64,000 nt of DNA, taken from an uncultured Methanosarcinales archaeon (lineage in GTDB: Archaea; Nanobdellota; Nanobdellia; Woesearchaeales; 21-14-0-10-32-9). Shown piece after piece: positions 9,983 to 28,043 of this stretch; within the stretch, counting starts at the first letter, position 1, and each line of letters starts with the position of its first letter. The position numbers and the translations under genes were made by a program. The DNA is taken from NCBI GenBank assembly GCA_964548665.1, contig CAZJQL010000001.1:5462-69461 (forward strand), written 5' to 3'. The notes under the pieces are model-generated. The model was not told the DNA's origin and ran no database searches. It saw only the letters and a list, made by a program, of their open reading frames with translations.

Positions 9983-11523
9983 AAAAAATAATCCTACTAC
10001 TAATGGGACTCCTTTTATTAATGCCACTCGTGCATGCTGAAGATATTACCTTATCATTAGACCAAAAAGAATACTATTTCAAAACAGGGGAAAATGCAAT
10101 CATAAACATTCACGCAGAAAACACATACAAGGAAACAATCAATGGAATGCTAAGCTACACAATCACCCAGTTAATAAATCAAGGGAATTTCCAGATGTCG
10201 AGTTCAAACACCAAATCTACCAATTTTCAGATAAAAGAAGGAAAAACAGATAATCAATTAAATTTTGGGACATCAGAAACACCTATATTATTGACAGTTG
10301 GACTCTCATTTCAGTACAATAAGGATGAATCAAGAGTGGTGCAATTAGAAGACATAAAAATACATTTTGTAAGCGAAGAATCACAAAAACAAAACACCCA
10401 AAAAACTGTTTCTAGCAGTTCACAAAAGACAAGCGCCACACAACAAAACGATCCATTTACACAACAAGAACAACGAATGCAACAAATGATAAATCAAATG
10501 TTTGGAGAAGAACCGCAACAACAGCAACAACAATCAGCAACACAGAAACTCCAAAATAACCAATTATCTCAGGACAGTTCAGCATTAAAACAGCAGATGC
10601 AAAAACAATTCCAAGAACAGCAGGCATTAAAAGAAGAATTCCAAAAACAACTATCACAAAATCAAGAATTCCAAAAAGAACATCAAGAACTATTAAGTCA
10701 AGGATATAACATCACAAGCGGAAGTCTAAACCCTATTGCAAATGACACAGGGACATTCGAATTAAATTACCAAAAAAACAACGGAGAACGAGCAACACTT
10801 AAAGGAGAAATGAACAATGGACAAATGCAACATCTTGAAAAAGATACTCCTCAAACAAGACAAGAACTATTAAACCAACTTCAACAAAATAAACAATTCC
10901 AAGAATACCAAAAGCAACTAGAACAGCAAGGATTCTCACAACAAAATACTGAATTCAAAACAACACAAAACCAAACAGATATTCAAGTAAATTATCTAAA
11001 CAAGAAAAATGAAACAGCACAAATAAGTGCTGAGATAATAAACAAAACAATAGAAAAAGTCGAATTAACAAAAAATATTGAAACTAAAAAGAAAAACTAT
11101 TGGTGGATTATCCCTGCATTAATTATTCTTGCAATATTAGTATATTTAGCTTATAAAAAGTTGAACAAAAAGAATAATAATACAAATCACCAAGCTATTC
11201 AAACTGAAGAAAAACCCTTTGATTACAAGAAAGAATCTAAGAAACTATTAGAAGAATCAAAGAAATCATTTGAGGTAAAAGAATACAAAGATGCATACGG
11301 AAAAGCAGGACAAGCACTAAGACTATATTTAAGCTATGAGAATAATCTAAAGAAAGAAATAACTAATGATGAAATAATCATTCACTTAAAAAAACAAAAA
11401 AAAGAATACCAAAAAATAAAAGAATGCTTCGATCTATGTTCGCTAGTAGAATTTGCAAAGTATGAAGCGAATAAAAAAGATTTTTATAAAATAATAACCG
11501 AGATAGAAAAAATAATTGAATGA
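9979..11523 (+). CDS. secreted Q-rich, coiled-coil membrane-anchored protein (BatD-like position in the Bat/MoxR operon)
   Basis: Signal peptide, poly-Q/QQ-rich low-complexity core, TM near residue 370, C-terminal helical/TPR-like tail. Confidence 0.45.
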   Translation: MKKIILLLMGLLLLMPLVHAEDITLSLDQKEYYFKTGENAIINIHAENTYKETINGMLSYTITQLINQGNFQMSSSNTKSTNFQIKEGKTDNQLNFGTSETPILLTVGLSFQYNKDESRVVQLEDIKIHFVSEESQKQNTQKTVSSSSQKTSATQQNDPFTQQEQRMQQMINQMFGEEPQQQQQQSATQKLQNNQLSQDSSALKQQMQKQFQEQQALKEEFQKQLSQNQEFQKEHQELLSQGYNITSGSLNPIANDTGTFELNYQKNNGERATLKGEMNNGQMQHLEKDTPQTRQELLNQLQQNKQFQEYQKQLEQQGFSQQNTEFKTTQNQTDIQVNYLNKKNETAQISAEIINKTIEKVELTKNIETKKKNYWWIIPALIILAILVYLAYKKLNKKNNNTNHQAIQTEEKPFDYKKESKKLLEESKKSFEVKEYKDAYGKAGQALRLYLSYENNLKKEITNDEIIIHLKKQKKEYQKIKECFDLCSLVEFAKYEANKKDFYKIITEIEKIIE

Positions 11524-11708
11524 TTTAATCAAGTAATTAAACAGTTGTAAATTTTAGTAAGATGATTTTAGAGAAACGCATTAAAAAGACTCTAAAGACT
11601 TTTTATCTTTTGTTATCGTAAAGTATTCTTTACAAAAAGAATATATGAACTGTTTACAAAATAAATTTCAGCACATTTAAATATTAACTATTGATTTAAT
11701 CTATCATA

Positions 11709-12938
11709 ATGTTTAATAAGTATTTTAAGAATCTAAGTGTTGAAAAGAAGAATGCCTTGTGGCTCATTATCTTGTTTGGTGTAATCAGTCTTCTAGGGGA
11801 TATTATTTACGAGGGTGCAAGAAGCGTTAATGGTCCCTACTTGAACACATTGGGAGCAAATGCAGCAATCGTCGGCTTGGTTGTAGGTATTGGAGAATTG
11901 CTTGGTTATGCTATACGATTGCTCTCAGGATACTTCTCTGATAAGACTAAAGCGCATTGGTTCTTTACAATATTCGGATATGGCTTGCTTATTTCAGTTC
12001 CACTTCTTGCCTTGTCAAGCTATTGGCAATTTGCAACTATCTTCATAATTTTGGAGAGGATAGGCAAGGGTTTAAGAAGTCCTGCAAAAGACACAATACT
12101 TTCTCATGCTACAAAACAAGTAGGGACGGGAATAGGATTTGGAATAGCAGAATTCTTAGATCAGATCGGTGCAACAATCGGACCACTTATTTTCACATTC
12201 TTTTTTGTCAGTTTAGGATCTGCCCAAAAAACAGTCTCTGATTATCAGCACGGATATGCATTGTTCTGGTTGCCTTTTATCATATTAATGATGGTCTTAT
12301 TTTTTGCATACTTTAAAGTCAAAAATCCAGAAGCACTGGAAAAAGAGGACAAGATAAAAGAATCAAAAGGAATTCCAAAAATATTCTGGACTTATGCAAT
12401 ATTCTCGTTTGTTACAACTATTGGATTCATTAATTTTGCAATAGTAGGATATCATATGAAAGTGAATGGATTATTTTCAGATGCACAAATACCTCTGTTA
12501 TATGCGTTTGCAATGATGGTCGATGCAATTTTTGGTCTAATTGTAGGAAGACTTTATGATAAGATCAAAACAAAGCACAATCACGACCATTCAGGATTAT
12601 TATTGTTAATAGGACTTCCAATAGTTACTGCCCTTATCTTGCCAATGATTTTCTCGTTCACCCTTTCAATGATCCTAATCGGTGTATTCTTGTGGGGTGT
12701 CGTGATGGGCTCACACGAAACCATAATGAAAGCAGCAATCGCAGACATCACTGCAATCAACAAAAGAGGAACAGCCTACGGGGCATTTAATGTAATCTAC
12801 GGAATTGCATTGTTCATTGGAAGCGTGCTTTCAGGATTCTTATATGAGATATCGATTAATTTGATGATAACTGTACTCATGTGCATGCAAGTAATAGCAA
12901 TGATCATATTCTTTAAACTAAAAAAAGATTTGAACTAA
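11709..12938 (+). CDS. MFS transporter
   Basis: 409 aa, about 12 TM, MFS-type loop motifs. Confidence 0.7.
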   Translation: MFNKYFKNLSVEKKNALWLIILFGVISLLGDIIYEGARSVNGPYLNTLGANAAIVGLVVGIGELLGYAIRLLSGYFSDKTKAHWFFTIFGYGLLISVPLLALSSYWQFATIFIILERIGKGLRSPAKDTILSHATKQVGTGIGFGIAEFLDQIGATIGPLIFTFFFVSLGSAQKTVSDYQHGYALFWLPFIILMMVLFFAYFKVKNPEALEKEDKIKESKGIPKIFWTYAIFSFVTTIGFINFAIVGYHMKVNGLFSDAQIPLLYAFAMMVDAIFGLIVGRLYDKIKTKHNHDHSGLLLLIGLPIVTALILPMIFSFTLSMILIGVFLWGVVMGSHETIMKAAIADITAINKRGTAYGAFNVIYGIALFIGSVLSGFLYEISINLMITVLMCMQVIAMIIFFKLKKDLN

Positions 12939-13114: not shown

Positions 13115-13345
13115 AAATCGTTTTACACGTTAGCACAAAAAGTGCTCCAGGAACAAAACAAACCAATGCATTACGCAGACATAACAAAGGAGATCTTAAA
13201 GATCAAGGAAACCAAAGGCAAGACGCCAGAGCGAACAGTAATGGCAGTAATACTAAGAGACAAGCACAATATCTTTACAAGTGTAGGCGAGGGTATCTTT
13301 GGATTAAGCTCGTTTCAAAGTAGCCCAAAAGCTACCAAAGCTTAG
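13097..13345 (+). CDS. HARE-HTH domain protein (RpoE-delta/restriction-associated wHTH)
   Basis: 82 aa; the pattern A..VL......PMHY.DI...IL......GKTPE.TV.AVILRD...F..VGEGIFGL matches the HARE-HTH fold. Confidence 0.6.
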   Translation: MAKKADKSFYTLAQKVLQEQNKPMHYADITKEILKIKETKGKTPERTVMAVILRDKHNIFTSVGEGIFGLSSFQSSPKATKA

Positions 13346-13635
13346 AGAATTACGCTTGCCGCAACTATTCCTTTTTTGCTAAGGTGTGCAGAGAGCATTG
13401 AGTTAAACATTTTATTATGGCTAGAATATCTCAGATGTAAGAGTTCATGAACGATTACTTTGGATCTTGTCTGATAATTCTTATTGAGTAATGCGTATGA
13501 GAATGTGACTCTTCCCTTAGATGAACAGCTCGCCCATTTTCTACTCATTGCCCGTACATGAATTTCTTTAGGCTTCACCCCTATATCTTCTGCCCAATGC
13601 ATCACTTCTCTTTTGAAATCATTGACTGGAATCAT
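13342..13635 (-). CDS. DUF45/YgjP-like zinc metallohydrolase (short form), last gene of the Type I R-M operon
   Basis: SRKWASCSS...VIVHELLHL...HNKMF matches the DUF45 C-terminal catalytic half (HExxH). Start codon lies 2 bp past the hsdR stop. Confidence 0.65.
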   Translation of the reverse strand: MIPVNDFKREVMHWAEDIGVKPKEIHVRAMSRKWASCSSKGRVTFSYALLNKNYQTRSKVIVHELLHLRYSSHNKMFNSMLSAHLSKKGIVAASVIL

Positions 13636-16553
13636 TCGTTTGCACCTTTAAGCATCGTTGTTATCTTAGTGGTCAATTCGACAGTCTTTTTAACGGTTGT
13701 CCCTGATTTTACGAAAACTTTCTGGAGCTCTTGCTTTAATTTCCGCTCATGATCTTCACTTTTCTTCCAATGAGGATATTTTTCGAAAATATTTTTCATA
13801 CTGTTGGCTTTTTCTTCAGCATCACTTAAGCCTTCATCTTTTAATAGCCAATAGACTGAGAAGACGTCAGTGGACATCTTCATTTTCTTTTGTTCTTTTT
13901 TAGCGTGGTTTATCTCGGTAACGAGTTCTTTTAATTCATCAAGTGTTTCTTCAGTATCTTTTTGTCTTTGTTTGTAAAGCATAGAGATTAGCTCTGCTTT
14001 TTGGCCTATTGATACAAGGTATGGATTACTGCTTGCGCCATGCTCGATAGATATTCCGATGCTTCTTAAGAGATTGAATATTTTCTCTGTATCGGAAGAT
14101 TTGTTCTCATCAAGCTTCTTTAAAGTGGTCTCGTTTATCTCGTAAATTTCCAGAGTGGACTTTATCTTTCCGCTGTGGGTGTGTTCTTGGACAAGCTTCG
14201 CTGTTTTTCTTGTGAATTCTTTGTCAACAGATATTCCTGGTTCGTATGCTTCTCTTAATATCTTGAACATTCTTGCTAAGGTGTCAAATTCTTCAATGTA
14301 TGGTCTTAGGAATGCGTCTGGTGATAATATCTCATAGATGTCTGACATCTCTTTGAAGAATTGATAGAAGTCTTGTCTTTTTGTTTCGTCTTTGAAATAA
14401 TCGAGTACTGCTTCAACTGCTTTATCTTTGGTTTTTCCTTTCAGCAGCTTAAGATAATCTTTTCTTGCAGTAGTTATGAGTTCTTCAAATCGTTTCTTTA
14501 AGACTTCAAGATCTTTGACTACTTCAGTCACATCTCCAGAATCAAATGCGAGGGCTTTCTCAAGCTTGTCGAAAATTCCGACGAAGTCAAGAACAAATCC
14601 TGAAGGCTTCTTTCTGCCCTCTTCATCCTCATATGGTCTGTTGACTCTTGCAATTGCCTGCAATAAAACGTGATCTCTCATAGGCTTATCAAGATACATA
14701 CAGTAAAGGATCGGAGCATCAAATCCAGTCAATAATTTCTCAGTAACAATTAATATCTTCGGCTGTTTGTTAGGGCTTCTGAATGCTTTTCTTATTCTCT
14801 TTTCTTTTTCCGTTGTGATATAATATTTCGCTAAGTTTTCCTGGTCGTTATGTGCTGGACTGTAAACAACTTCTGAATATTCTTTTGGAAGATATTTGTC
14901 GATTTCTTCTTTGTATAATGCACACGCCTCTCTATCTACCGCAACGATAAAAGCTTTGTAGCCCATTGGCTCTACATTATTCTTGAAATGGTCTACTATG
15001 AATTTAGTGACTTTCTTTACTCTCTGCTTATTCTTCAGCATATTTTTGAGAGTGACTGCTTTTTCTAGGACCTTGTTTAATGATTCTATGTCACTTATTC
15101 CTTCTGCTTCTGCGAGGTTTAGGAATTCTTTTTCAAGAATTTCTTTCTCAGGTCTTATCTCATTAGGAGCTAATGTATAGTGGAGTTTGACTGTTGTTCC
15201 GTCTTCTATTGATTCTGCAATTCCATATTTGTCAAGATATCCTTTTGGAGGATCATCTCTTCCAAAGACCACAAATGTGCCTTTTCCATGAGAAGTCTTG
15301 TCAATTGGCGTTCCTGTAAATCCGAGATATGTTGCATTAGGTAAAGCTCCCATCAAGTAATTTCCTAAGTCTCCACCTGTTGTCCTATGTGCTTCGTCTA
15401 CAAGGACAATTATGTTTTTTCTGGTATTGATGTTTGCAGGTAATCCTTCAAACTTGTGAATCATAGAAATGATTAATCCTCTTGCGTCTCTTTCCAATAG
15501 ATCTTTCAGATGCTTTTTTGTTTCAGCAACTTCGATATGCTCAATGCCGACTGCAGTAAGATTTCCAAATAGTTGTGTCTCTAACTCATTTCTGTCGACA
15601 AGCATAATTACAGTTGGATTCTCGAAGAGCGGGTTTGCAAGGATTCTCTGGGCTGCAACAATCATGGTGAATGTTTTTCCGCTTCCTTGAGTGTGCCAAA
15701 CCAATGCCCTATTTTTCTTTTTGCTTGAAGCTCTCTCCACAAGCTTTTCAACTGCTCGCATTTGATGAGGTCTTAAGACGACCTTTTGCAGTTCATCATC
15801 TTGCCTTGTAAATAGTATGAAATGCAATAATGTTTTTACAAGCCTTTCCTTATCAAAGAAAGTCTTGACCATCTCTTCATAGTTCTTTGCAAGAGTGTCG
15901 GTCTTCCAATTGAAGACAGATTTCATTGACAACGACCATGTCGATGAATATAAGAAATGAATAATGTTTGTTGCAGTGTAGACTTGAAATAAGGTCATCG
16001 CTTCAGGAGTCTCTTTATGATATCTTCTGACCTGGTCTAATGCTTCTGCAATGATGGAGTCCCTGTTTACTGATCTTCCAATAAATTTAGCGACTGATTT
16101 TGTTTCGACAAAAAGGATAGGGACTCCGTTAATCAAAAACGCTACATCGTAACGATTTGTGTTTGTGCCGTTTGTATATGAGAATTCATCAGTAACTTGG
16201 AAAATGTTTCTTTTCGGGTTCTCATCGACGATTATGACATTTCTTTCTCTCTTTTCATTTTGAACAAATACTGTTTTTAATCCTCTTAAGTATTCCCACG
16301 CTTGAAGATTTCCCTCAATTCTTGCAGGCAATCGCTCAATCTTTTTGATGAGCTCTTCAATCATTATAGAGTCAATAAAATCAGAATTTAGCTTTCCGAC
16401 TTGTTCAGTAAAAACTTCCTTGAATAAAAGCCCAGTCTTTCCACCCCTAAGCCTAATTGCATCCTCTGGCTTGACATATTCCCATCCAATTTCACACGCA
16501 TATTGGATAAGTGTATTTTGGACTGCAGCTCTTTCGTTTCCCAATTTATTCAT
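13632..16553 (-). CDS. hsdR: Type I restriction enzyme R subunit
   Basis: 973 aa; N-terminal nuclease region, SF2 helicase motifs TQGSGKT and DEAHRT, C-terminal helical domain. Confidence 0.9.
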   Translation of the reverse strand: MNKLGNERAAVQNTLIQYACEIGWEYVKPEDAIRLRGGKTGLLFKEVFTEQVGKLNSDFIDSIMIEELIKKIERLPARIEGNLQAWEYLRGLKTVFVQNEKRERNVIIVDENPKRNIFQVTDEFSYTNGTNTNRYDVAFLINGVPILFVETKSVAKFIGRSVNRDSIIAEALDQVRRYHKETPEAMTLFQVYTATNIIHFLYSSTWSLSMKSVFNWKTDTLAKNYEEMVKTFFDKERLVKTLLHFILFTRQDDELQKVVLRPHQMRAVEKLVERASSKKKNRALVWHTQGSGKTFTMIVAAQRILANPLFENPTVIMLVDRNELETQLFGNLTAVGIEHIEVAETKKHLKDLLERDARGLIISMIHKFEGLPANINTRKNIIVLVDEAHRTTGGDLGNYLMGALPNATYLGFTGTPIDKTSHGKGTFVVFGRDDPPKGYLDKYGIAESIEDGTTVKLHYTLAPNEIRPEKEILEKEFLNLAEAEGISDIESLNKVLEKAVTLKNMLKNKQRVKKVTKFIVDHFKNNVEPMGYKAFIVAVDREACALYKEEIDKYLPKEYSEVVYSPAHNDQENLAKYYITTEKEKRIRKAFRSPNKQPKILIVTEKLLTGFDAPILYCMYLDKPMRDHVLLQAIARVNRPYEDEEGRKKPSGFVLDFVGIFDKLEKALAFDSGDVTEVVKDLEVLKKRFEELITTARKDYLKLLKGKTKDKAVEAVLDYFKDETKRQDFYQFFKEMSDIYEILSPDAFLRPYIEEFDTLARMFKILREAYEPGISVDKEFTRKTAKLVQEHTHSGKIKSTLEIYEINETTLKKLDENKSSDTEKIFNLLRSIGISIEHGASSNPYLVSIGQKAELISMLYKQRQKDTEETLDELKELVTEINHAKKEQKKMKMSTDVFSVYWLLKDEGLSDAEEKANSMKNIFEKYPHWKKSEDHERKLKQELQKVFVKSGTTVKKTVELTTKITTMLKGANE

Positions 16554-17682: not shown

Positions 17683-18219
17683 TTACTGTTTACTTTCGTG
17701 ATGTTCTTCCTTTTTCTTCCGCTTAAGCTTCTTAACAATCCAATCAATCACATTCTTCTTAATATCGAAATTAAAGACAGAAGCACTGATTAAATCTCCA
17801 ATAATGATAAAGATAAGAAATATATTGACGATAAAAACAACTTGATAATTGAAATAAAGCTTATTGTAAATAGCTACATAATTATTGTTCACAGTATCAA
17901 ATTTCTGATTGAGAATAGCAACATCATACCTTGAAATGTTAATCTCCTGCTTAAGATCTTCAATATCTTTTTTAGTTACGTTCTCAGTTATGAGACGAGT
18001 ATATTCAGCCCTGCACTGCTGTACATTCTGATCTAATTGACTATTTTGTTGCTTAAGGCCACTAATTTCAGAATCCTTCTGACCAACTTGAGTAATATAA
18101 GGAGCACACTGAGAATCAGTAGCTATCTTAGACAAAGAAGTAAAGACAGGAATCATAGCTAAGATGAACATCAAAGCCAAAAAGCCACCGACAATAACAG
18201 CAACAGGTCCTTCAGCCAT
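17683..18219 (-). CDS. membrane protein: TM - coiled coil - TM, basic tail; unknown function, inside the R-M operon
   Basis: 178 aa; N-terminal TM (AVIVGGFLALMFILAMIPVF), about 90-aa Q/N-rich coiled coil, second TM, KR-rich C-terminus; 1-bp spacing to hsdS. Confidence 0.45.
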   Translation of the reverse strand: MAEGPVAVIVGGFLALMFILAMIPVFTSLSKIATDSQCAPYITQVGQKDSEISGLKQQNSQLDQNVQQCRAEYTRLITENVTKKDIEDLKQEINISRYDVAILNQKFDTVNNNYVAIYNKLYFNYQVVFIVNIFLIFIIIGDLISASVFNFDIKKNVIDWIVKKLKRKKKEEHHESKQ

Positions 18220-18220
18220 C

Positions 18221-19516
18221 TTAAACCACCAAATCCTTCACTCTGACTTTAGCAGTCATAAGATCACGAAGCATAGAATTAAAGAACTCCTCAAGAGAAG
18301 CTTTCTTACGTTCCTCTGCTATGATCTTATCATCTAAAGCAGATAGAATATCTGATATTTGAATTTGAATATTTTTTTGTGGAACACCAATTTCAATATT
18401 ATCAATCAAATCTTTATTCAATCCACTTCTGTCTTCATCTCCTGTAATATTTCTAATTTTATCATAAATATTAGACAAGGCATAATGTAAATACATATAA
18501 TCTACTGATTCATTTGGGATAATGCAAACAACAGATTGATTAGATGTGCAAGGTATCTCCAGTGGTGCTGTTGTTCCTCTTGTTTTTCCTCTGCCAGCTA
18601 ATGCAATAACCACTGATTTAGGAGGTAACCATTTGGCATTTGAATTTTCCAATCCTTTTTTTGAAATAAAAGTATTCATTGATGCAATCTTTCTGCCTTG
18701 AACTTCTCCTGATTTCATCCAGGGGATCTCGGCAGGTTCCCAATACTCTTTTATTTCAGTTTTGGGAGTGCCACCTGCTATTAATTTGGAAAAATTCTTG
18801 ATTTTAAGAATTTTCCATTCGGCAGGAATTTTACCGATATCTGTATCTCGAAGCGTTACAGATTCAGCTTCTTCAGGAGTGGCCATTCCATAAGTGAACA
18901 AATGCTTCATCATGGATTTCTTCAATTCAGACAGTGAACTAATCACAGAATCCGTTTTCTCTTTTGATTCAAGTATGGCTAACAATACTGACGCTATTTT
19001 CTTCTGCTCGTCAATTTGAGGCAATATTGTAAGAAAGTTCTCAACAATTCCTTTGTTAATATTTTTCTGTGTACTCTGAATATTATGCATTGCTAACTGA
19101 GGAGCTAAATATTTCAATACAAAAGCACCAAACTCTACATTTAATTTTTCGTTTGGAATTATAGCGAGAATTGCCTGATTTGTTGCTACAGGAATTTTAT
19201 TTATTGCAGTCTCTCCAATTGTCGCATACATACTTAACAATAATGAATTTGGCGGAACTATCCAAGCACTTGATTCGTCTAATCCCTTTTTTGTGATAGT
19301 TTCTTTTGTTTTATACAAATAAATTCCGCAAGAGGTCATATCCTCTATAAGAACAAAAGGAATATCTCCATTAAAGTATTCCTTATTGCCTCGTTTAGGT
19401 GTTCCACCTGACCGCATCTTAATGGCTAAATCCTTTATTCTAATAAGATTCCAGCTTTCAGGTATCTCTCCCATTTCTGTTTGTTTTGTTCTTTCAAGGA
19501 CAGTTATATTTTTCAT
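18221..19516 (-). CDS. hsdS: Type I R-M specificity subunit
   Basis: 431 aa; two TRDs separated and followed by conserved coiled-coil repeats (LP..DEQKKIA; AEERKK...LL). Confidence 0.85.
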   Translation of the reverse strand: MKNITVLERTKQTEMGEIPESWNLIRIKDLAIKMRSGGTPKRGNKEYFNGDIPFVLIEDMTSCGIYLYKTKETITKKGLDESSAWIVPPNSLLLSMYATIGETAINKIPVATNQAILAIIPNEKLNVEFGAFVLKYLAPQLAMHNIQSTQKNINKGIVENFLTILPQIDEQKKIASVLLAILESKEKTDSVISSLSELKKSMMKHLFTYGMATPEEAESVTLRDTDIGKIPAEWKILKIKNFSKLIAGGTPKTEIKEYWEPAEIPWMKSGEVQGRKIASMNTFISKKGLENSNAKWLPPKSVVIALAGRGKTRGTTAPLEIPCTSNQSVVCIIPNESVDYMYLHYALSNIYDKIRNITGDEDRSGLNKDLIDNIEIGVPQKNIQIQISDILSALDDKIIAEERKKASLEEFFNSMLRDLMTAKVRVKDLVV

Positions 19517-21267
19517 TTTGATTCCTCTAATAAGCTGATGGGTTTCTTTTGATATTTTTCTGCTTTCTTCAAGAATAGTTTTGCTTTGGAAGGCTCGTGC
19601 AATGGTTTAATTGCTGCAGCTTTTATTCTCCATGCATCGCTGTTCTTCTCATTAAATCTGATCACTGCGTCGGCATCTTCTATTGCTTTATTCCATTGAT
19701 GCGTATCCAGGAAAGCTCTTGCTCTGTCCAATAAGAATTCTTCTTTTCTCCAGAGTCTTAATGCCTTATCAAAGTAATTCAATGCTTCTTTTGGTTTCTT
19801 TTTAGCTAATAGCACAACTCCTTTTTTATTTAGTACATAAGCATTTTTTGGAAAGAAGGTGTAGGCCAAATCAATAATTTCTTCTGCTGTTTGTATATTA
19901 CCAGAGTTTAAGAAAACAACAGTCTTATTTGACCAACCTAATGAGAAATTCTTGTCTTTTTCTATTGTTTTCTCAAAACACTCCAGAGCTAAATTAAGAT
20001 ATTTTTCTGTATTTTGATATTTTGAATTCTTCTCGTAAATAACTCCCTTGTTGTTTATTGAATTGACATTATCTGGCTCTTTTTTCAGCAGTTCTTCATT
20101 TAGTTTAAAGGCGTTTTTGAGGTCGATAAGTTCAATGTAAACATCTACTTTTAGGCTCTGTAGAACTGCTGATTTATTTACGTGCTCTTCTTTCTCATCA
20201 AGGAATTTCAAAGCTTCTTCTGATCTATCTAATGCTTTTAGTATCTCTGTCTTTGTTTGAATAGCGACAATAAAGATAGGATCAACTTCTAAAGCCTTTT
20301 CTACATAAGGCAGTGCTTCTTCAGGTTCACCTTGCCTATTTAGATTATGAGCCTTATTGTTTAATGCAAATTTATGTTTGGCATCAATTTCAAGAACAGC
20401 ATCATAGCAGACGGTCGACTCGTCAACCTTATCTATTCTTTCAAGAATAAATCCTTTGTTCAATAGTGCTTCTGTATTTTTAGGTGTTATCTCAAGTGAT
20501 TTATCCAAAAACATTAATGCATCGTCTTCTTTTTGTAATGCGAAGAAGAACATGCTCATTTTGGAGTAAACTAAAGCCTTGAGATTTATCTCAGTATCTT
20601 TCATATTGATTAATGCATTCTTGAGCTCTTCAGCAACTTCATGAGGATTATTCAGATTAATAGTTTTTGTAGTATTGAATTGGAATTGAATACCAAATCT
20701 TTTTCCTAAATCAGTAGACTGTTGAATTGCTGTTTCTGGTTTCTTTATATCGATTAATGGCGGAACTTCCTCGTCAGGAAAATACGCTTTGCATATGTCT
20801 GGAATCTCAAAAAGAAGATCTAAGAACTTTGTTCCTGTCCAATCGTTTATTTCGCACCTGTTCTTTTTATTCCAATTATCCATATCATCTTTGCAGTCAG
20901 GGGTTGAATCGGAATTCGATAGTATAAAGAATCTTTTTATTCCTTGATCTTGGGCTTTTTGAACTTCTGTAGAAAATTGTTTAAAATTAACTCCTGCTTT
21001 TTGTCTCTTGCATTGAAACCAGCATTTCTCACGTTTTTCTTCTTTGGCAATTTTTACAATAAACTCGGCTTCTAAGTCTCTGCCACCATCTCCTCCTTTT
21101 CCTCGAGTAATTGGATTAATAAAGTTATTTCTCTTGATGATATCATAGCAAAGATTCTGGAAATCGTCAGGAGATAATTCATTGAGAAGTTTCTTCCATT
21201 CTTCTCTTTTTTTAATCTCTTTTTGCTTCATATTAACATAACCTCTCCACCCAGAATTTAGCTTCAC
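19513..21267 (-). CDS. Mrr_cat-type PD-(D/E)xK nuclease domain fused to a C-terminal TPR-repeat array
   Basis: N-terminal roughly 170 aa: RGKGGDGGRDLEAE...WFQCKRQ matches the Mrr catalytic core. The rest is about 400 aa of TPR-like repeats. Confidence 0.6.
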   Translation of the reverse strand: MKLNSGWRGYVNMKQKEIKKREEWKKLLNELSPDDFQNLCYDIIKRNNFINPITRGKGGDGGRDLEAEFIVKIAKEEKREKCWFQCKRQKAGVNFKQFSTEVQKAQDQGIKRFFILSNSDSTPDCKDDMDNWNKKNRCEINDWTGTKFLDLLFEIPDICKAYFPDEEVPPLIDIKKPETAIQQSTDLGKRFGIQFQFNTTKTINLNNPHEVAEELKNALINMKDTEINLKALVYSKMSMFFFALQKEDDALMFLDKSLEITPKNTEALLNKGFILERIDKVDESTVCYDAVLEIDAKHKFALNNKAHNLNRQGEPEEALPYVEKALEVDPIFIVAIQTKTEILKALDRSEEALKFLDEKEEHVNKSAVLQSLKVDVYIELIDLKNAFKLNEELLKKEPDNVNSINNKGVIYEKNSKYQNTEKYLNLALECFEKTIEKDKNFSLGWSNKTVVFLNSGNIQTAEEIIDLAYTFFPKNAYVLNKKGVVLLAKKKPKEALNYFDKALRLWRKEEFLLDRARAFLDTHQWNKAIEDADAVIRFNEKNSDAWRIKAAAIKPLHEPSKAKLFLKKAEKYQKKPISLLEESK

Positions 21268-22159
21268 TTATTAGTTGTTTTGAGATTTCTTCAGAATTAT
21301 CAAAATAAGACGATAAAGCTGTTGTAATATTGCTTAACATGGAATCAGTTGCCAAATCTTTTAATGAAGGATTCTTTAAGGTATCTTCTATTTTTTGTTG
21401 ATTATCATGTATTTTTTTAAGATCTTTATCATTCATAAATCGTGATGCCAGAAATCCTATGTCTCCTGCAATGATAGGATCGACAATAGAAATCTGGCTT
21501 AAGGCTAATGCTTCTGAAATAGTCTGTATTGAGAATATATCCTCTATTTCCAGAACTTCTCCTATCGTTTTGTAGTTAGTTTCATAATCATAATCCTTTT
21601 TCCAATAGATATTCTTTAGGTCAATAACTGCAAGAAGACTTATTATGCATTTAGCGTTTTGATATTTCGAATATATCTCTTTTTCAAACCACTCCTCAAG
21701 ATCTTTTCGTGTGCTTAGATTTTTCGGCACTTTAGATGGCGGAATTATGCTTAATGCTCCACCAAGATTCTTAGATCCATAATTTTTCTCTATTTCTGTC
21801 TTTATGAATTTGAAATTCTTGCCATCAACTTTCTGATTGGCATATTGAAAAATGATTATAGGAAGAGGTTTTGAATATTTTTTAACTAAATTCTCTTTAG
21901 ATATTCCTTTTCTTTTTAAGGAAGTTATGACATAGCTATAATCTTTTTCAGTCTTCTCTTTGTCACTCAATGCTTCCTCTATTTTTTTATTCTTCGTCTC
22001 TACATCTTGTTTAAGATTCCTATTTTCTTCAATTAATAAGTCAATAAAACTCTGGTTTTGTATTTCTTGTTTTTTCTTTTTACTAAAAATTGAGATAATC
22101 TTATCTAGGACTTTACTTACAAACCACCCTATTATTGATTCTAACCACATCCTATTCAA
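21233..22159 (-). CDS. hypothetical protein: N-terminal TM helix, coiled coil, unknown C-terminal domain; between hsdM and the Mrr-TPR gene
   Basis: 308 aa; overlaps hsdM by 8 bp and the downstream gene by 35 bp (operonic). Confidence 0.4.
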   Translation of the reverse strand: MNRMWLESIIGWFVSKVLDKIISIFSKKKKQEIQNQSFIDLLIEENRNLKQDVETKNKKIEEALSDKEKTEKDYSYVITSLKRKGISKENLVKKYSKPLPIIIFQYANQKVDGKNFKFIKTEIEKNYGSKNLGGALSIIPPSKVPKNLSTRKDLEEWFEKEIYSKYQNAKCIISLLAVIDLKNIYWKKDYDYETNYKTIGEVLEIEDIFSIQTISEALALSQISIVDPIIAGDIGFLASRFMNDKDLKKIHDNQQKIEDTLKNPSLKDLATDSMLSNITTALSSYFDNSEEISKQLISEAKFWVERLC

Positions 22160-23669
22160 ACCCCATCTGCTCTAGGATTTTCTTGAGTTTTTCGTCAGCT
22201 TGTTTTCTTTCTTCTTCTGCTTCTCTTAACTGAACATATGCATCTTCAAGATCAAGTGTTTCATCAGTGCCATTCTGTGCAACGTATCGTGATGGAGAAA
22301 GGTTGTAGTCGTTCTTTGTTATTTCTTCAGCAGTCACTATTTTGCTTACTCCTTCCTCTTCTTTCCATTTCAAGTAGATTGATGCAATCTTGTCTACTGC
22401 TGAATCTGGCATGAAATTCTTTGGCCTTCCTTTCTCAAATAGCTTAGAGCCATTAATCAATAGAACTTTATTCTTGTGTTTCTTATCTTTATTTATGATA
22501 AGAATTATTCCTGGAGCAGTTGTATTATAGAATAGGTTTTCAGGCAATAATAGAACGGCTTCAATTATATCTGCTTCTATGAACTTCTTTCTTATGTCTC
22601 TTTCTCTGTTTGATCCTGCATTTCCTGAGCCACGAGATACTGCCCCTGTGTCTAAGACTACTGCTATTCTTCCTTTATTCTTTAGGGAAGCGAGCATATG
22701 TTGGACCCAACCCCAGTCTGCACTTGACGTTGTTGGATATCCGTAAATGAATCTTCCATATGCATCATTTTCGTAAGTGCTTTGAGGAAAACTGTCTTGA
22801 TTCCACATTGGATTAGCAACGACAATATCGAATTTACGCAAGTGACTGTCTGCTGTTGTGAATGCTGGCCTATTCATTGTGTCGCCAAGAGCTATATCTG
22901 CTTCCATATCGTGAATAAATGCATTCATTTTAGCCATAGCATAAGTTGTATGTAGGCTTTCTTGACCAAAGAATTTCAATGGTTTTACTTTTGTGTTGTC
23001 TCCATGTTTCTCTCTGAATCTCAAGAAACTCTTAATCAATAGTCCGCCTGATCCTAAGCAGGGATCGTATATTTCCTCTCCTTCTTTTGGGTCGAGAATG
23101 TGTGCCATAAGTATTCCTACTTCTTTTGGCGTATAGAATTCTCCTGCACTTTGCCCTGATCCTTCTGCGAATTTTCTTAAGAGGTACTCGTATGCTCTTC
23201 CTATTAAGTCTGGCTCAACATCTTTCTGACCAAGCCTATGTTTGTTTAATGTATCAATTAATGCTTTGATTTTATCGTCTGTGATTATTCTTTGGCCTGC
23301 AGCTGTTGCGTTGAAATCAACTATGTCTATGACTCCTTGCAGTTTAGGGTTTTCTCTTGCTATTGCTCTGACTGCGTCAGTAAGGTATTCTCCGAGTCTT
23401 GTGCTTTGTTTTATTATGTTTGACCATCTTGCATTTTCAGGAAGATAGAATCTTACGAGTGTGTGATCTTCTTCAACGAATTCTTTTGCAGTCTTTATGT
23501 CTTCATATTCTTCTGATAATTTTTGTATTTCATCGTCGAATACATCGCCAAGTCTTTTCAAGAATATAAGTGGTAAGATATAGTCTTTGTATTTTGGTGC
23601 GTCTATTTCCCCTCTGATTTTACACGCTGCTTCCCAGAGCCATCCTTCGAGTGTTTTGATATCTAGCAT
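22152..23669 (-). CDS. hsdM: Type I R-M N6-adenine DNA methyltransferase subunit
   Basis: 505 aa; HsdM N-terminal domain, SAM-binding motif I, catalytic NPMW (motif IV). Confidence 0.9.
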   Translation of the reverse strand: MLDIKTLEGWLWEAACKIRGEIDAPKYKDYILPLIFLKRLGDVFDDEIQKLSEEYEDIKTAKEFVEEDHTLVRFYLPENARWSNIIKQSTRLGEYLTDAVRAIARENPKLQGVIDIVDFNATAAGQRIITDDKIKALIDTLNKHRLGQKDVEPDLIGRAYEYLLRKFAEGSGQSAGEFYTPKEVGILMAHILDPKEGEEIYDPCLGSGGLLIKSFLRFREKHGDNTKVKPLKFFGQESLHTTYAMAKMNAFIHDMEADIALGDTMNRPAFTTADSHLRKFDIVVANPMWNQDSFPQSTYENDAYGRFIYGYPTTSSADWGWVQHMLASLKNKGRIAVVLDTGAVSRGSGNAGSNRERDIRKKFIEADIIEAVLLLPENLFYNTTAPGIILIINKDKKHKNKVLLINGSKLFEKGRPKNFMPDSAVDKIASIYLKWKEEEGVSKIVTAEEITKNDYNLSPSRYVAQNGTDETLDLEDAYVQLREAEEERKQADEKLKKILEQMGFE

Positions 23670-23968: not shown

Positions 23969-24460
23969 TTATTCTCTTTTAGGTCCTTTCATTATTGCAT
24001 TACACCCATCACAAACTGGGGCTTGCTTAATTGCTACACTGACTGGAATCAGTTCTCTTTTATTACACCTAACGCATAGGCGATTAATAAGCGATGGATC
24101 TGGAGATCTGCTTTTAGGGAATACCTCATTCATTAATTCAAACGCTTTATCTTTGAAGAATGCATTAAAGCTTGTATGTATGGTTTTTTGTGTTTTATAA
24201 TTGCTCATTGAATCGGTTAGGTTCAAACACATTGGCTTTTTCTCGGCATAGAGTTCTGGCCAGTTCTCACGAAATTTGACATCATCTTCAGCATAAAAGA
24301 CACGAATTAAATCGCTCTCTTTCAATTTTATCGCAGTAGTTTCATCAGTTTTTGATAAATCAATGATTTGCAAGACTGCAATCTCTTTGAATATATTCAA
24401 AACATATCTTATGTGTTCTTCGTTCTTCCCGCCAATAATGGTTATTTTCTCGCTTAACAT
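23969..24460 (-). CDS. hypothetical protein with C-terminal CxxC...CxxC zinc ribbon
   Basis: 163 aa; C-terminal CVRCN...CDGCN; 1-bp gap to the ligase gene. Confidence 0.4.
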   Translation of the reverse strand: MLSEKITIIGGKNEEHIRYVLNIFKEIAVLQIIDLSKTDETTAIKLKESDLIRVFYAEDDVKFRENWPELYAEKKPMCLNLTDSMSNYKTQKTIHTSFNAFFKDKAFELMNEVFPKSRSPDPSLINRLCVRCNKRELIPVSVAIKQAPVCDGCNAIMKGPKRE

Positions 24461-24461
24461 T

Positions 24462-25259
24462 TTATTTGTCCTCCCTCACTCTTATTATTCTCGGAAATCT
24501 TAGTTTCTCAAAATCTCCTTTATTGAAAGATAGCTCAATTGTTGAGCCTATAGAATAATCTGCAGAGCTCATCACAGTCCCTGTTTTCTCGTTTTCTGAA
24601 ATATACTTGTAAACCCATGCTTTGTTGTCTTTTGTCTGTTTTTTCTCTATGATCTTGACGTCAATTGTTCGAATGGGTTTCATTTTAATCCAATTGAAGC
24701 GAGAATTTGGCTTGTAGCTTTCAAGATTCTTTATTACAATACCTTCAAATCCCGATTCTATAAGTTTCTTGTAAAGTCTTTCAACGTCGACGATTGTATT
24801 TGTAAATGTGTTTGGAACAATGTTTAAGCTATCATTCTCCTGGACAAAGAAATTGATGTGCTGTCTTCTTGTTACATAATCGGATTCAATCAAGCTGTTG
24901 CTATCAACTTCTAAGATGTCAAAAACAAAGAAGACAAATCTTTCATCGGAAAACAATTCTTTGGCAATTGCACGATGAGAACCTACAACTTTTCCTTTCT
25001 TTAATACGGCCATTTCACCATCAAGAATAATTCTTTCTGGAAGTATCCCCTTTCTAAGATCTTCTGCAATGGACTTATATCTGCTTGAATAATCCTTGCC
25101 ATTACGTGTAATGAGCTTTATTTCTGTTCCATTCTTTTCAAGAAGAATCCTTACCCCATCTATCTTAGGCTCTAAAGCAACAGCATCATTATTGTAGATA
25201 AAAGTTTCCACCTCTCCCTCTCCAACAAGCTGTGGCTTAAAGCTCGTCACATTTATCAT
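24462..25259 (-). CDS. minimal ATP-dependent DNA ligase (NTase + compact OB, 265 aa)
   Basis: Motif I EPKIDGVR, III LDGEMAV, IV EGIVIK, V WIKMKP, VI RFPRIIRVREDK; no DNA-binding N-terminal domain. Confidence 0.8.
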   Translation of the reverse strand: MINVTSFKPQLVGEGEVETFIYNNDAVALEPKIDGVRILLEKNGTEIKLITRNGKDYSSRYKSIAEDLRKGILPERIILDGEMAVLKKGKVVGSHRAIAKELFSDERFVFFVFDILEVDSNSLIESDYVTRRQHINFFVQENDSLNIVPNTFTNTIVDVERLYKKLIESGFEGIVIKNLESYKPNSRFNWIKMKPIRTIDVKIIEKKQTKDNKAWVYKYISENEKTGTVMSSADYSIGSTIELSFNKGDFEKLRFPRIIRVREDK

Positions 25260-25596
25260 CCTTCCTTACCTCCGACAAATCTGCATTTAATCTCTTGATG
25301 ACCCAACATCCTTGACCTTTAGAACTATGAGAACTCTTGAAGTATACCGCGAGAAGAGGAACAATATTGAACTCAATAGCCTTCTCAATTATTCCATGAA
25401 GGCCAGTCATTCTATAAACTACTTCTCGAGTACTTTTGACTTCCACCAAGAAAACCTCTTTTTTAGAGAATAATACTGCATCGCAGACAGAATATTGCCT
25501 TCTACCAGAAGCTGCAACTCTTTCTGTATGATATCCTTTATCTTTCATCATGTTGCAGAAGTCCCGTTCATATTGGAGATGACTTTTCAATCTCAT
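25237..25596 (-). CDS. hjc: Holliday junction resolvase Hjc (archaeal PD-(D/E)xK)
   Basis: 119 aa; GYHTERVAASG...CDAVLF...LVEVKST matches the Hjc E-D-E-K catalytic arrangement. Confidence 0.75.
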   Translation of the reverse strand: MRLKSHLQYERDFCNMMKDKGYHTERVAASGRRQYSVCDAVLFSKKEVFLVEVKSTREVVYRMTGLHGIIEKAIEFNIVPLLAVYFKSSHSSKGQGCWVIKRLNADLSEVRKDDKCDEL

Positions 25597-27115
25597 CAGA
25601 GATCACCTCCAATTCTTGCTCTGCAATCTCGCCAATCAGTTTAGCAATAGAAGATTTTCCGAGAACAACATCTTCGTGGCCTTTGTATTTTTCAAAGAGT
25701 TCTGTAAATCTTCTGAGTCTATCAAGCTCTAAATCCTTGTCAAACTTTATTCCTGCCTTATTGCAGAATGCTCTAAGAATATCAACTTTCTTCATCCATA
25801 AACAAAGAACACCTGCATGTTTTGCCCATTCGAAAAGCTGTTGTCCATTTGGATGATTCATAATCAAAACAGGCATTAATCTATGAGTTCCTGGAATAGG
25901 TTTCATGTCAAGAGATCTTCCATGAGACAAGCATCCAATCATAGAAGTGATGTATTTCTTTCCTGCACTTCCGAGATATTTTCCTTTCTTATCCCTCTTG
26001 ATTGAAACAGCAAATCCAAATATAGGAACTTTCAGCAATTGATCATAACAGAAAATCAAATAGTCTATTGGCTCAGAATCAAACCTCCAAACATCAACAA
26101 GCCTCTGCTCTTTCTCATTAGTATATCTCTTAATGTCGTTTGGATTAAACCAAGAAGGAATCCTCTTTGGAAAGTCCTTATTGAGTCGAATCTGCAGATT
26201 ATATCTCGAGATGAGATACATTACAAAGTAGAATATGGCTTGTTCTTCGAATCCATTTCCGAGAGTGGTCACATCCAATATACTTTTTACAACTTCTTCC
26301 TTATGCAGTTTAGGAGCCTGTTCGAGAACATAACTTTCAGGCATTGTTCTGTTGAAATAGTATCTTCTCTGCTTGAATGATACAACCTTAATCCAGCCGA
26401 CGCTGATAAACCTTACATCAAACCAACTTTTTATATCGCCATTAGTTACTTTGAATCGGTCCTTCATCATGTCAATATTATAGATATCATTGGACTGAGA
26501 AATGAGCAGGAAAGCACTTCTTACCTCTTTAGGCATAAGCTTCAAGATCTTATTATAGATGGCCAAATCATCTTTTCCGTAGACGTAGCCTGGTTTTCTG
26601 CCATGAATCATAGCATTGCCTGGCATCATAAAAGGACTTCTTTTGATGAGCTGCAACCTGATAAGATCATTCAGGCAGAAGTAAACATGATCATAATTCC
26701 CGTATTCCTTATAATACTCTTTTTCCCTCAATAAATAGAGAACTTCAGCAGTCGTATAGCCTTCTTCTGAAGACATCAACGCATCAAAGATTTCTTTTTT
26801 AATGCCTTGCAAGAACTCTTTCTCATCAGTTTTGCTATTTAGCTTCTGAATCTTCTGGTTGATATCATCCTGGCTCATGCCGTAAACAAAGACAGAACTG
26901 CACTTCCTGGCACTGCTCTGAGCCTTTTTCCTGCTCTTGATGATAAGATTGCCCTGCATGATCTGACGCAGGTAAGAAGAGATGTGGCAGTACCTGATGC
27001 CTCTGTCTTTGAAGGCGTCAAAAATCTCTTTTGTAGTAACTGCCCGTCTTTCCGTTATGAACTTATAAATCTGGAAAGTGATACTATTTTTGTCAAAAGT
27101 GATTTTATCGGCCAA
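25568..27115 (-). CDS. hypothetical 515-aa protein with two N-terminal winged-helix-like domains; candidate replication/initiator-type protein of unknown family
   Basis: No Walker A/B seen. 29-bp overlap with hjc (operonic). Confidence 0.35.
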   Translation of the reverse strand: MADKITFDKNSITFQIYKFITERRAVTTKEIFDAFKDRGIRYCHISSYLRQIMQGNLIIKSRKKAQSSARKCSSVFVYGMSQDDINQKIQKLNSKTDEKEFLQGIKKEIFDALMSSEEGYTTAEVLYLLREKEYYKEYGNYDHVYFCLNDLIRLQLIKRSPFMMPGNAMIHGRKPGYVYGKDDLAIYNKILKLMPKEVRSAFLLISQSNDIYNIDMMKDRFKVTNGDIKSWFDVRFISVGWIKVVSFKQRRYYFNRTMPESYVLEQAPKLHKEEVVKSILDVTTLGNGFEEQAIFYFVMYLISRYNLQIRLNKDFPKRIPSWFNPNDIKRYTNEKEQRLVDVWRFDSEPIDYLIFCYDQLLKVPIFGFAVSIKRDKKGKYLGSAGKKYITSMIGCLSHGRSLDMKPIPGTHRLMPVLIMNHPNGQQLFEWAKHAGVLCLWMKKVDILRAFCNKAGIKFDKDLELDRLRRFTELFEKYKGHEDVVLGKSSIAKLIGEIAEQELEVISDEIEKSSPI

Positions 27116-27244
27116 CGTCTATACCTCCAGAATTAGTAAGGAATAACCAATATAAAGCCCTAATTGGTAAGAAATATAGTAAGCTTAGTAAGAAAAGAAT
27201 AGAAAAAGAATTATAACAGGAAAACGCCCTAAATACCGAAGTAT

Positions 27245-27982
27245 TTAATCGTTATCGACTCTTGGTGCTAATATGAATTGTAGGCTTAACTTATCTTTTT
27301 CTAGGTATTCCAGAATTAAAGGATAGTCGTTGCTGAATTTTATTGTTGCTTTTGTTGCTAATTTTGATCCTTGCATCATTTTTTTTAGGTATTCTATTGA
27401 GTATTTGGATTTTTGTGTTGCTTCTGTTTCTATTTTCACTTGTTCATCTGGTTTTATTATTACTTCTGCTCTGTTTAGATCGCCTATCGAGGATATTATT
27501 AAAGATTCTTTGTCTGATTGTAGTATTACGCTTTCACCTACTATGTCCATGTCTTCTATTGCTTCGTTTAGAGTTGAGGACAATAGTTCTATTTTTGCTT
27601 TGGTTGTTAGTTGGGGTATTCTTTGTTGTCTTTCCTCTAAGTCTATTAGTGGAAGATAGAATGTTCTTGTTGTTTTTTCTTTCATAACTATTTTTAATTT
27701 ATTTTCTGTTTTTTCTATTGTGAGTTTGTCTGTAGGTTTTGTTCTTCTTAGTACTTGTTTTAGGTTATCTAGGTTTATTGCTATTGTTGTGTCTTCTTTT
27801 AATTCATATTCTGAGAACATTGTTGCTGGCATTTTGAATATTACCATTGCAACATTTGCAGGATCCATTGCGATTATTTCTATTTGATCTGGCGTTATTT
27901 TGAATTTTGTTTCTTTTACTAATTCGGAGATTATTGCTATGCTTTCTTTTAGAAATTTTGGTTCTGATAGGGTTAATTTCAT
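27245..27982 (-). CDS. pcn: PCNA sliding clamp
   Basis: 245 aa, two-domain PCNA pattern; N-terminal MKLTLSEPKFLKESIAIISELVKETKFKITPDQIEI. Confidence 0.8.
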   Translation of the reverse strand: MKLTLSEPKFLKESIAIISELVKETKFKITPDQIEIIAMDPANVAMVIFKMPATMFSEYELKEDTTIAINLDNLKQVLRRTKPTDKLTIEKTENKLKIVMKEKTTRTFYLPLIDLEERQQRIPQLTTKAKIELLSSTLNEAIEDMDIVGESVILQSDKESLIISSIGDLNRAEVIIKPDEQVKIETEATQKSKYSIEYLKKMMQGSKLATKATIKFSNDYPLILEYLEKDKLSLQFILAPRVDND

Positions 27983-28043
27983 TTATATCCTCCCTTTTTC
28001 TCTTGAAAAGGAACTTTATTTATATAGTTTTCTTTGATTTCGT

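Follow-up and report, generated by a model that had tools for sequence, protein, structure and literature searches.

What does a nuclease that is fused to a long array of tetratricopeptide repeats (TPRs) do in the middle of a Type I restriction-modification (R-M) operon? The question is raised by a gene in a stretch of 64,000 nucleotides (nt) of contig CAZJQL010000001.1, from the assembly GCA_964548665.1 of an uncultured Methanosarcinales archaeon; "the window" refers below to the whole of this stretch. The protein, here called Mrr-TPR, consists of an N-terminal Mrr_cat nuclease domain followed by a linker of 64 amino acids (aa), ten TPR hairpins and a 13-aa C-terminal tail. Its architecture, the invariance of its catalytic residues, its family, the distribution of that family and its genomic contexts were established in this analysis. 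Mrr-TPR represents a real, conserved archaeal family and, given its repeated occurrence inside R-M operons, is likely to be a new single-protein antiviral sensor-nuclease. With moderate confidence, we read it as an autonomous defence protein whose nuclease is gated by the TPR array and which travels as a passenger inside R-M operons.

Domain architecture and predicted structure

The longest open reading frame (ORF) of the gene, 19513..21267 on the minus strand, comprises 584 aa from a GTG at 21267. The true start is likely to be the ATG at 21231, which gives a protein of 572 aa, because homologues begin at the equivalent methionine, because an identical database protein (P0153, 100%) has 572 aa and because this ATG lies 1 nt past the TAA of the upstream ORF. 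A GGAGAGG-like stretch precedes it. Residue numbers refer to the 572-aa protein unless the 584-aa ORF is named, and the coordinates of all features are collected in Table 1.

A reading of the letters alone (the sequence-only reading) had assigned the N-terminus to Mrr_cat from the motif GGDGGRD...EAEF...WFQCKRQ, and this assignment was borne out. The motif is present as G46-G-D48-G-G-R51-D52, E54-A-E-F57 and W71-F-Q73-C-K75-R-Q77, and PF04471 matched residues 28-151 of the 584-aa ORF with an E value of 3.3e-8 and a score of 34.1 bits, against a gathering cut-off of 21 bits, over profile positions 1-114 of 115. The same profile was matched by 49 of 49 more distant relatives. Residues D48, R51, D52, K75 and S105 were invariant in 99 of 99 relatives, while position 73 was occupied by Q in 76 and by E in 23 of these; the catalytic residues were also invariant across 21 representatives at 50% identity. 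Since these residues do not vary and position 73 is confined to Q or E, the nuclease is under selection to remain active. The domain is mildly basic, with an isoelectric point (pI) of 8.7.

A structure was predicted with AlphaFold2 (AF2) from a 99-sequence family alignment, as a single-sequence run gave a predicted local distance difference test (pLDDT) value of 37 and was unusable. The model had a mean pLDDT of 91.8 and a predicted template modelling score (pTM) of 0.90, and on the strength of this pTM the nuclease and the TPR array are predicted to be held in a fixed relative orientation. The order of helices (H) and strands (E) in the nuclease was modelled as H21-34, E37-45, E51-61, E64-75, H87-95 and E100-105 (pLDDT, 78-93), followed by H111-123 and E127-132, with a predicted alpha-beta-beta-beta-alpha-beta core as in PD-(D/E)xK enzymes. 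In this model, D52 falls within the opening residues of the second strand, and Q73-x-K75 closes the third.

Mrr-TPR belongs to Mrr_cat and to the TPR superfamily, and no further domain was detected in Pfam, NCBIfam and PADLOC scans. The sequence-only reading had seen no winged-helix reader at the N-terminus, and this also held: Mrr_cat starts at residue 16, the approximately 15 residues ahead of it have no Pfam match and Mrr_N was not detected. Identity with classical Mrr was ruled out by the lack of Mrr_N. The three databases yielded no NTPase family, and the protein lacks a Walker A motif ([AG]xxxxGK[ST]), which ruled out identity with an Avs or STAND protein.

A TPR array of roughly 400 aa had been proposed to follow the nuclease. 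A long TPR solenoid does follow, but it measures approximately 345 aa and begins after the conserved linker. Approximately 20 TPR-type Pfam models matched residues 213-551 of the 584-aa ORF (approximately 201-539 in the 572-aa numbering). By mean information per alignment column, the TPR domain (2.77 bits) is conserved as strongly as the nuclease (2.69 bits). It is charge-neutral (pI 7.1; 56 K+R versus 56 D+E) and carries near-invariant asparagines in its A helices (N216, N252, N291/N292, N296, N378, N393, N402 and N435), which occupy TPR positions 5/6 in several repeats (NNK[GA]). A Foldseek search with the whole model gave the TPR superhelix of OGT (1w3b) as the top match, and the TPR proteins IFIT1/5 were among the matches. 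In line with this match, the asparagine array resembles the asparagine ladder of OGT and importin-alpha, which binds extended peptides. The likeness lies in the superhelical repeats and the asparagines at positions 5/6 of the A helices; the differences from OGT are an identity of 17-19%, the lack of a glycosyltransferase domain and an array that is partial.

In the C-terminal tail, S566, L567 and L568 are each shared by 98 of the 99 sequences and E569 by 93, and SLLE is often the extreme C-terminus of family members. Tail residues 561-570 were modelled with a pLDDT of ~92 and with an isolated beta-bridge at 566, and a second isolated bridge was predicted at the conserved D370 within the TPR domain. 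The conserved SLLE, together with a confidently modelled tail and the bridges at 566 and D370, suggests that the tail may dock in the TPR groove. The SLLE motif was absent from neighbouring proteins in the loci examined, where the Mrr-TPR proteins alone carry it.

Distribution and genomic contexts of the family

A word-indexed search with the N-terminus returned three fragments only, and the family was exposed by an exhaustive profile search. Among 1.84 billion representatives, 596 relatives of the nuclease domain were detected, and approximately 21 representatives at 50% identity (565-590 aa) align end to end. The sequence-only reading had proposed a database search for the same domain order; a search of a collection of 5.8 billion proteins with the alignment of these representatives returned approximately 110 clusters at 90% identity (566-585 aa), all with PF04471 and TPR families. 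The hits of the family number roughly 212. The named sources were always archaeal (Methanobacterium, Altiarchaeales, Woesearchaeota, Nanoarchaeota, "Methanococcoides sp. SA1" and an uncultured archaeon). The architecture carries generic annotation only in databases, the Methanobacterium members being annotated "restriction endonuclease" or "DUF3808", and full-text literature searches found no paper on it. A full-length copy was present in 5 of 185,579 species-representative genomes (an uncultured archaeon, a Woesearchaeota, a Nanoarchaeota, a Heimdallarchaeota and a Methanosarcinales genome), and a scan of viral contigs detected no full-length homologue.

Decayed copies were also found. The copy in locus L001 is a frameshifted, truncated pseudogene, and a 173-aa remnant with an in-frame internal deletion (L002 10001-10522, the same as L050 8001-8483) sits between Type III mod and res on an archaeal contig of 541-760 kb. 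In this remnant, the N-terminal nuclease half up to QCK is joined to the last TPR and the PISLLE tail. As the gene is sporadic and exists in decayed copies, it is not a housekeeping gene. The suggestion that the protein might turn out to be a widespread housekeeping TPR protein is excluded by this distribution, with the family occurring sporadically in R-M operons, defence islands and mobile elements. The L001 contig switches abruptly at 11456-12712 to histidinol dehydrogenase ORFs that appear GC-rich by eye, and it may be a chimeric assembly.

Genomic context was surveyed in 27 related loci, including the window, with neighbouring proteins clustered all against all. R-M or DNA-methyltransferase genes were present within a few kb of Mrr-TPR in 16 of the 27. 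In six loci (the window, L003, L004, L034, L040 and L107), hsdS begins directly downstream of Mrr-TPR, at a gap or overlap of no more than 26 nt, and these are all the loci that show both a Type I system and the gene that follows Mrr-TPR. To our knowledge, such a constant placement ahead of hsdS in unrelated Type I families is a feature of this family that no earlier account describes. On the upstream side, hsdM directly precedes Mrr-TPR in L003, L004 and L039. The two are separated by one small gene in the window and in L047 and by four other embedded genes, including those for an AAA_15 ATPase and a HEPN protein, in L107. Other arrangements were hsdR, DUF3800, a 139-aa gene and Mrr-TPR, in this order, in L005/L037; an adjoining N6_N4 methyltransferase in L038 (4-nt overlap) and L111; an adjoining HsdM-like methyltransferase beside Type III and Vsr/C5 systems in L112; a C5 methyltransferase at 1.5 kb in L046; and nearby Type I debris in L109.

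The recurrent neighbours were HsdM (8 loci), HsdS (6), mod-type methyltransferases (5), two HsdR families (3 each), C5 methyltransferases (3) and TraG/VirB4-like proteins (3); recurrence ended with these families, and no conserved partner gene was detected in the 27 loci. Loci without R-M genes were also observed: the Methanobacterium locus L104 has Shedu SduA_C and KwaA (Kiwa) within 7 kb, L044/L045 lie near a rolling-circle Rep and an OLD-like ATPase, and other such loci have NERD (L041), HNH (L042), ORFans (L110) or purD (L007) as neighbours. The Mrr-TPR copies in L104, L110 and L007 are intact.

Relatedness among Mrr-TPR proteins does not track R-M grouping. The proteins are 50-60% identical between loci whose HsdM proteins are 24-28% and whose HsdR proteins are ~21% identical; for example, identity is 59% between the window and L003 and 60% between L003 and L107, while the HsdM proteins of the latter pair are 25% identical. 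This similarity in the face of diverged HsdM and HsdR indicates that the gene has moved between unrelated Type I families, and by sequence comparison it still lands between hsdM and hsdS after such moves. As embedding in R-M operons is both recurrent and position specific, a functional link with R-M is favoured. The sequence-only reading had suggested from the placement that the protein may work with the R-M complex or sense anti-restriction proteins; a specific physical partnership is argued against by TPRs that are conserved to the same degree as the nuclease among R-M systems of unrelated families and types, as well as in loci that have no R-M. A TraG/VirB4-like P-loop protein and associated genes are common to three loci of DPANN-type archaea (L003 16613-20831, L004 6200-12168 and L046 1-4736), which suggests that the R-M/Mrr-TPR cassette rides conjugative-like integrated elements.

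The operon of the window is transcribed from the minus strand in the order hsdM, 308-aa ORFan, Mrr-TPR, hsdS, 178-aa protein, nucleotidyltransferase/HEPN pair, hsdR and YgjP-like gene. The placement between hsdS and hsdM given by the sequence-only reading holds, except that the ORFan separates Mrr-TPR from hsdM. All three hsd genes are on the strand of Mrr-TPR, and the junctions overlap or are 1 nt apart: the first 8 nt of the ORFan lie within the end of hsdM, its stop comes 1 nt ahead of the Mrr-TPR ATG, and the TGA stop of Mrr-TPR overlaps the hsdS ATG as ATGA. Neither Pfam nor PADLOC gave a significant match for the ORFan, which in NCBIfam matched YabA once, weakly and far below threshold, and which has no relative in the other 26 loci. 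A 25%-identical relative of the 178-aa protein lies between hsdM and Mrr-TPR (536-1051) in the metagenomic locus L047, where Mrr-TPR is represented by an N-terminal fragment with 77% identity to the protein of the window, and the 178-aa protein may be a second mobile passenger of Mrr-TPR operons. The overlapping nucleotidyltransferase and HEPN genes are embedded between hsdS and hsdR; they are supported by Pfam matches as well, and their NCBIfam matches, to MntA and HalB, were weak and below threshold. Near its Mrr-TPR gene, L109 also has homologues of the two. The YgjP-like protein covers positions 115-194 of 207 of the PF01863 profile only and is either a truncated or a minimal form. The pairing of hsdR with a YgjP gene recurs in the Altiarchaeales locus L107 (13994-14581), where YgjP has 195 aa.

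Table 1. Features of the Mrr-TPR protein and of the surrounding operon, with positions in the window
Feature	Position	Strand	Detail or evidence
Mrr-TPR gene (likely start)	19513..21231	minus	572 aa + stop
Mrr_cat PD-(D/E)xK nuclease domain, residues 16-150	20782..21186	minus	Pfam PF04471
Catalytic core, D48-G-G-R51-D52 ... Q73-C-K75	21007..21090	minus	conservation in 99 relatives
Conserved linker, residues 151-214 (YFPDEEVPP..., two predicted helices)	20590..20781	minus	alignment and AF2
Ten TPR hairpins, residues 215-559	19555..20589	minus	Pfam, AF2, Foldseek
C-terminal tail with near-invariant P-I-S-L-L-E	19516..19554	minus	99-sequence alignment
hsdM (Type I methyltransferase), first gene of the operon	22152-23669	minus	N6_Mtase 3.7e-96, HsdM_N, TIGR00497
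308-aa ORFan between hsdM and Mrr-TPR	21233-22159	minus	
hsdS	18221-19516	minus	Methylase_S 1.5e-46
178-aa protein	17683-18219	minus	both ends hydrophobic, central coiled-coil match
Nucleotidyltransferase, 188 aa	17076-17642	minus	PADLOC PDC-M05A/B pair
HEPN, 177 aa	16550-17083	minus	PADLOC PDC-M05A/B pair
hsdR (Type I restriction subunit)	13632-16553	minus	TIGR00348 1e-142
YgjP-like (DUF45) metallopeptidase, 97 aa, directly after hsdR	13342-13635	minus	PF01863 5.8e-21

Just upstream of the operon, a minus-strand cluster (23969-30830) encodes a short ATP-dependent DNA ligase (265 aa), an Hjc-like resolvase, PCNA and unassigned proteins of 515 and 928 aa; it may be an integrated replicative element that carries or abuts the defence operon. 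Further along the window, two paralogous genes for beta-CASP/RNase J-like metallo-beta-lactamases (30919-32235 and 35139-36428, both minus) lie less than 5 kb apart and flank a histidine-kinase-like gene.

Nuclease relatives and known systems

The best match to the nuclease outside the family, P0014 (1020 aa; E 6e-33), combines Mrr_cat with nSTAND3, and P0143 (669 aa) combines it with NACHT and a Shedu SduA_C domain. P0266 (1017 aa), from a Methanobacteriota metagenome-assembled genome, has Mrr_cat with approximately 20 TPRs, a Zn-ribbon and HhH, and more than 100 bacterial representatives of approximately 300 aa have Mrr_cat followed by an unannotated C-terminal region. As its relatives occur on STAND/NACHT proteins, this Mrr_cat clade appears to be a modular effector head of conflict systems. 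The comparison with STAND and Avs architectures drawn by the sequence-only reading was well placed in so far as the nearest nuclease relatives are fused to nSTAND3/NACHT, but it does not extend to Mrr-TPR itself, which has neither NTPase nor Walker A. Mrr-TPR resembles Avs2/3/4 in that one polypeptide has a PD-(D/E)xK effector of the Mrr type at its N-terminus and a TPR sensor at its C-terminus, and Mrr-like double-stranded DNA nucleases are present in most Avs2 proteins (PMC13601566). It differs from Avs in that a 64-aa linker joins the domains in place of a STAND NTPase, in being half the size, in having TPRs of fixed length and high conservation and in being archaeal and embedded in R-M operons.

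Classical Mrr, the Type IV enzyme of E. coli, shares with Mrr-TPR an Mrr_cat domain with a D...D...(Q/E)xK core and a location near Type I hsd genes, E. coli mrr adjoining hsdR. The difference is that Mrr-TPR has a C-terminal TPR solenoid and no N-terminal winged-helix reader. Among proteins without an NTPase switch, DSR2 is a sensor-effector composed of SIR2 and HEAT-like repeats, and it has no sequence or architectural homology with Mrr-TPR. Upx is likewise an NTPase-less defence protein in which a large sensor is fused directly to a PD-(D/E)xK nuclease, and it is activated by direct binding of phage proteins (PMC13601566); Upx also has no homology with Mrr-TPR, its nuclease being C-terminal and its sensor not a TPR array. 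By analogy, Mrr-TPR may work like an effector-sensor fusion of the Avs, Upx or DSR2 type.

Genes inside Type I R-M, BREX and DISARM operons are often defence systems, a pattern termed "guilt by embedding" (bioRxiv 10.1101/2024.01.29.577857; PMC11411939). PrrC is embedded almost exclusively in Type I R-M (bioRxiv 10.1101/2024.01.29.577857), and TgvAB is a Type IV system in a Vibrio Type I operon (PMC11411939). Mrr-TPR lies inside an hsd operon as do PrrC, TgvAB and the PDC candidates (Payne et al.), and the window also has the PDC-M05A/B match, but the domain content of Mrr-TPR is unrelated to theirs. The PADLOC model PDC-M58A matched the nuclease domain only, and weakly (33.5 bits; E 8.5e-9; residues 30-140). 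Identity with PDC-M58, a two-gene cassette defined as FAM_02995>>FAM_00930, was ruled out, as no B component was found among the five operon proteins scanned against PADLOC (Mrr-TPR, the 308-aa ORFan, the 178-aa protein, the nucleotidyltransferase and HEPN).

A candidate sensor-nuclease and its alternatives

From the architecture and contexts described above, we infer a defence function for Mrr-TPR, the binding of a peptide, a role for the tail and a trigger. The effector would be an active Mrr-type PD-(D/E)xK DNase, rigidly linked to a ten-repeat, OGT-like TPR sensor or regulator, and at rest the nuclease would be kept inactive. The asparagine-lined concave groove of the TPR array would bind an extended peptide, most likely the C-terminal tail of Mrr-TPR itself, whether that of the same molecule (in cis, as autoinhibition) or that of another (in trans, as head-to-tail assembly). 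Entry of a conserved invader- or host-derived protein ligand into the groove would bring about a change of state that licenses DNA cleavage, and invader DNA would be degraded or abortive infection would ensue. The protein would have no obligate partner, and its typical translational coupling right 5' of hsdS would provide co-expression with the methyltransferase and a second layer of defence. A second-line defence embedded in R-M operons would be consistent with "guilt by embedding", TgvAB and Upx (bioRxiv 10.1101/2024.01.29.577857; PMC11411939; PMC13601566).

The closeness to R-M genes could also mean that Mrr-TPR guards the R-M system in the manner of PrrC, with the TPR array docked on the R-M methyltransferase complex or on a viral anti-restriction protein and the nuclease freed when restriction is disabled. 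Translational coupling between hsdM and hsdS, the same position in six loci that represent at least two Type I families, the remnant between Type III mod and res and the near confinement of PrrC to Type I R-M (bioRxiv 10.1101/2024.01.29.577857) all point in this direction. Against this, the TPRs are 50-60% identical where HsdM and HsdR are 21-28% identical, and one docking surface that would serve Type I, Type III, N6_N4 and C5 methyltransferases alike is hard to envisage; furthermore, intact copies without nearby R-M occur in Methanobacterium L104, L110 and L007, and no neighbour has an SLLE-like motif for recognition by the groove. We therefore regard a guard of this kind as unlikely. A third possibility is a Type IV-like, modification-dependent or DNA-directed restriction enzyme, in which the TPRs would replace the winged helix and mediate oligomerisation or engagement of nucleic acid, in an arrangement like an immigration control region. 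Membership in Mrr_cat, the mildly basic nuclease domain, the location of mrr next to hsdR in E. coli and the presence of RNA-binding TPR proteins (IFIT1/5) among the Foldseek matches would fit such an enzyme. So would the occurrence of Type IV systems in Type I operons (TgvAB; PMC11411939). Pfam, however, revealed no recognisable DNA-reading domain, the neutral TPRs with their OGT-like asparagine array are typical of peptide binding, and the closest relatives of the nuclease are STAND effector modules rather than classical Mrr, so that a Type IV-like enzyme is also improbable.

A role outside defence, whether as a TPR scaffold, housekeeping or regulatory, that bears a nuclease for DNA repair or recombination, or as a selfish addiction or mobility gene of the mobile elements around it, might be supposed from the loci on elements with rolling-circle Rep or TraG/VirB4-like genes and from the ligase/Hjc/PCNA cluster approximately 3 kb from Mrr-TPR in the window. 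Such a role is very improbable in view of only five full-length loci among the species-representative genomes, a patchy occurrence across unrelated archaeal phyla with pseudogenised copies, R-M genes as the only recurrent neighbours and the lack of a full-length copy in viral contigs.

Several observations weigh against an autonomous sensor-nuclease, the reading that we prefer. The matches listed in fold searches with the whole model were dominated by TPR proteins, which left the nuclease fold without support from comparison, and the PDB, searched by sequence with the first 201 aa and with a profile built from 49 sequences, gave no nuclease match. Apart from the partial, domain-level match of PDC-M58A, PADLOC does not contain the family. 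Docking of the tail in the groove, and any occlusion of the active site, were read from DSSP and pLDDT summaries only. The strongly conserved, non-diversifying TPR array is unlike many pathogen-sensing repeats and could equally mean that the partner is a conserved host protein, and the strictness with which the gene keeps to its place ahead of hsdS hints that it does not merely hitch-hike.

A more specific form of the sensor-nuclease reading is put forward tentatively and with some doubt. Mrr-TPR would be the first class of NTPase-free, TPR-gated nuclease immune sensors, archaeal and especially DPANN, in which PISLLE acts as a pseudo-ligand in the groove until it is displaced by a conserved viral protein, possibly an anti-restriction factor directed at the R-M system around the gene, and the Mrr-type DNase is switched on. 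The selected position between hsdM and hsdS would then represent a built-in back-up of the Type I system.

Archaeal antiviral immunity, especially that of DPANN archaea, is far less charted than that of bacteria, and what sets Mrr-TPR apart is the lack of an NTPase, the near-invariant tail, the restriction to archaea, DPANN among them, and the fixed site at which the gene is embedded in Type I families that are unrelated to each other. If the sensor-nuclease reading is true, the logic of effector and repeat sensor known from Avs/NLR-like systems can run without an NTPase switch, by means of a TPR solenoid that is small, rigid and of high conservation and that brings its own tail peptide. A 572-aa putative ligand-gated DNase could be a tractable structural and biotechnological object. 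The constant position 5' of hsdS in unrelated Type I families provides a concrete, testable case of "guilt by embedding" and bears on how R-M operons recruit second-line defences.

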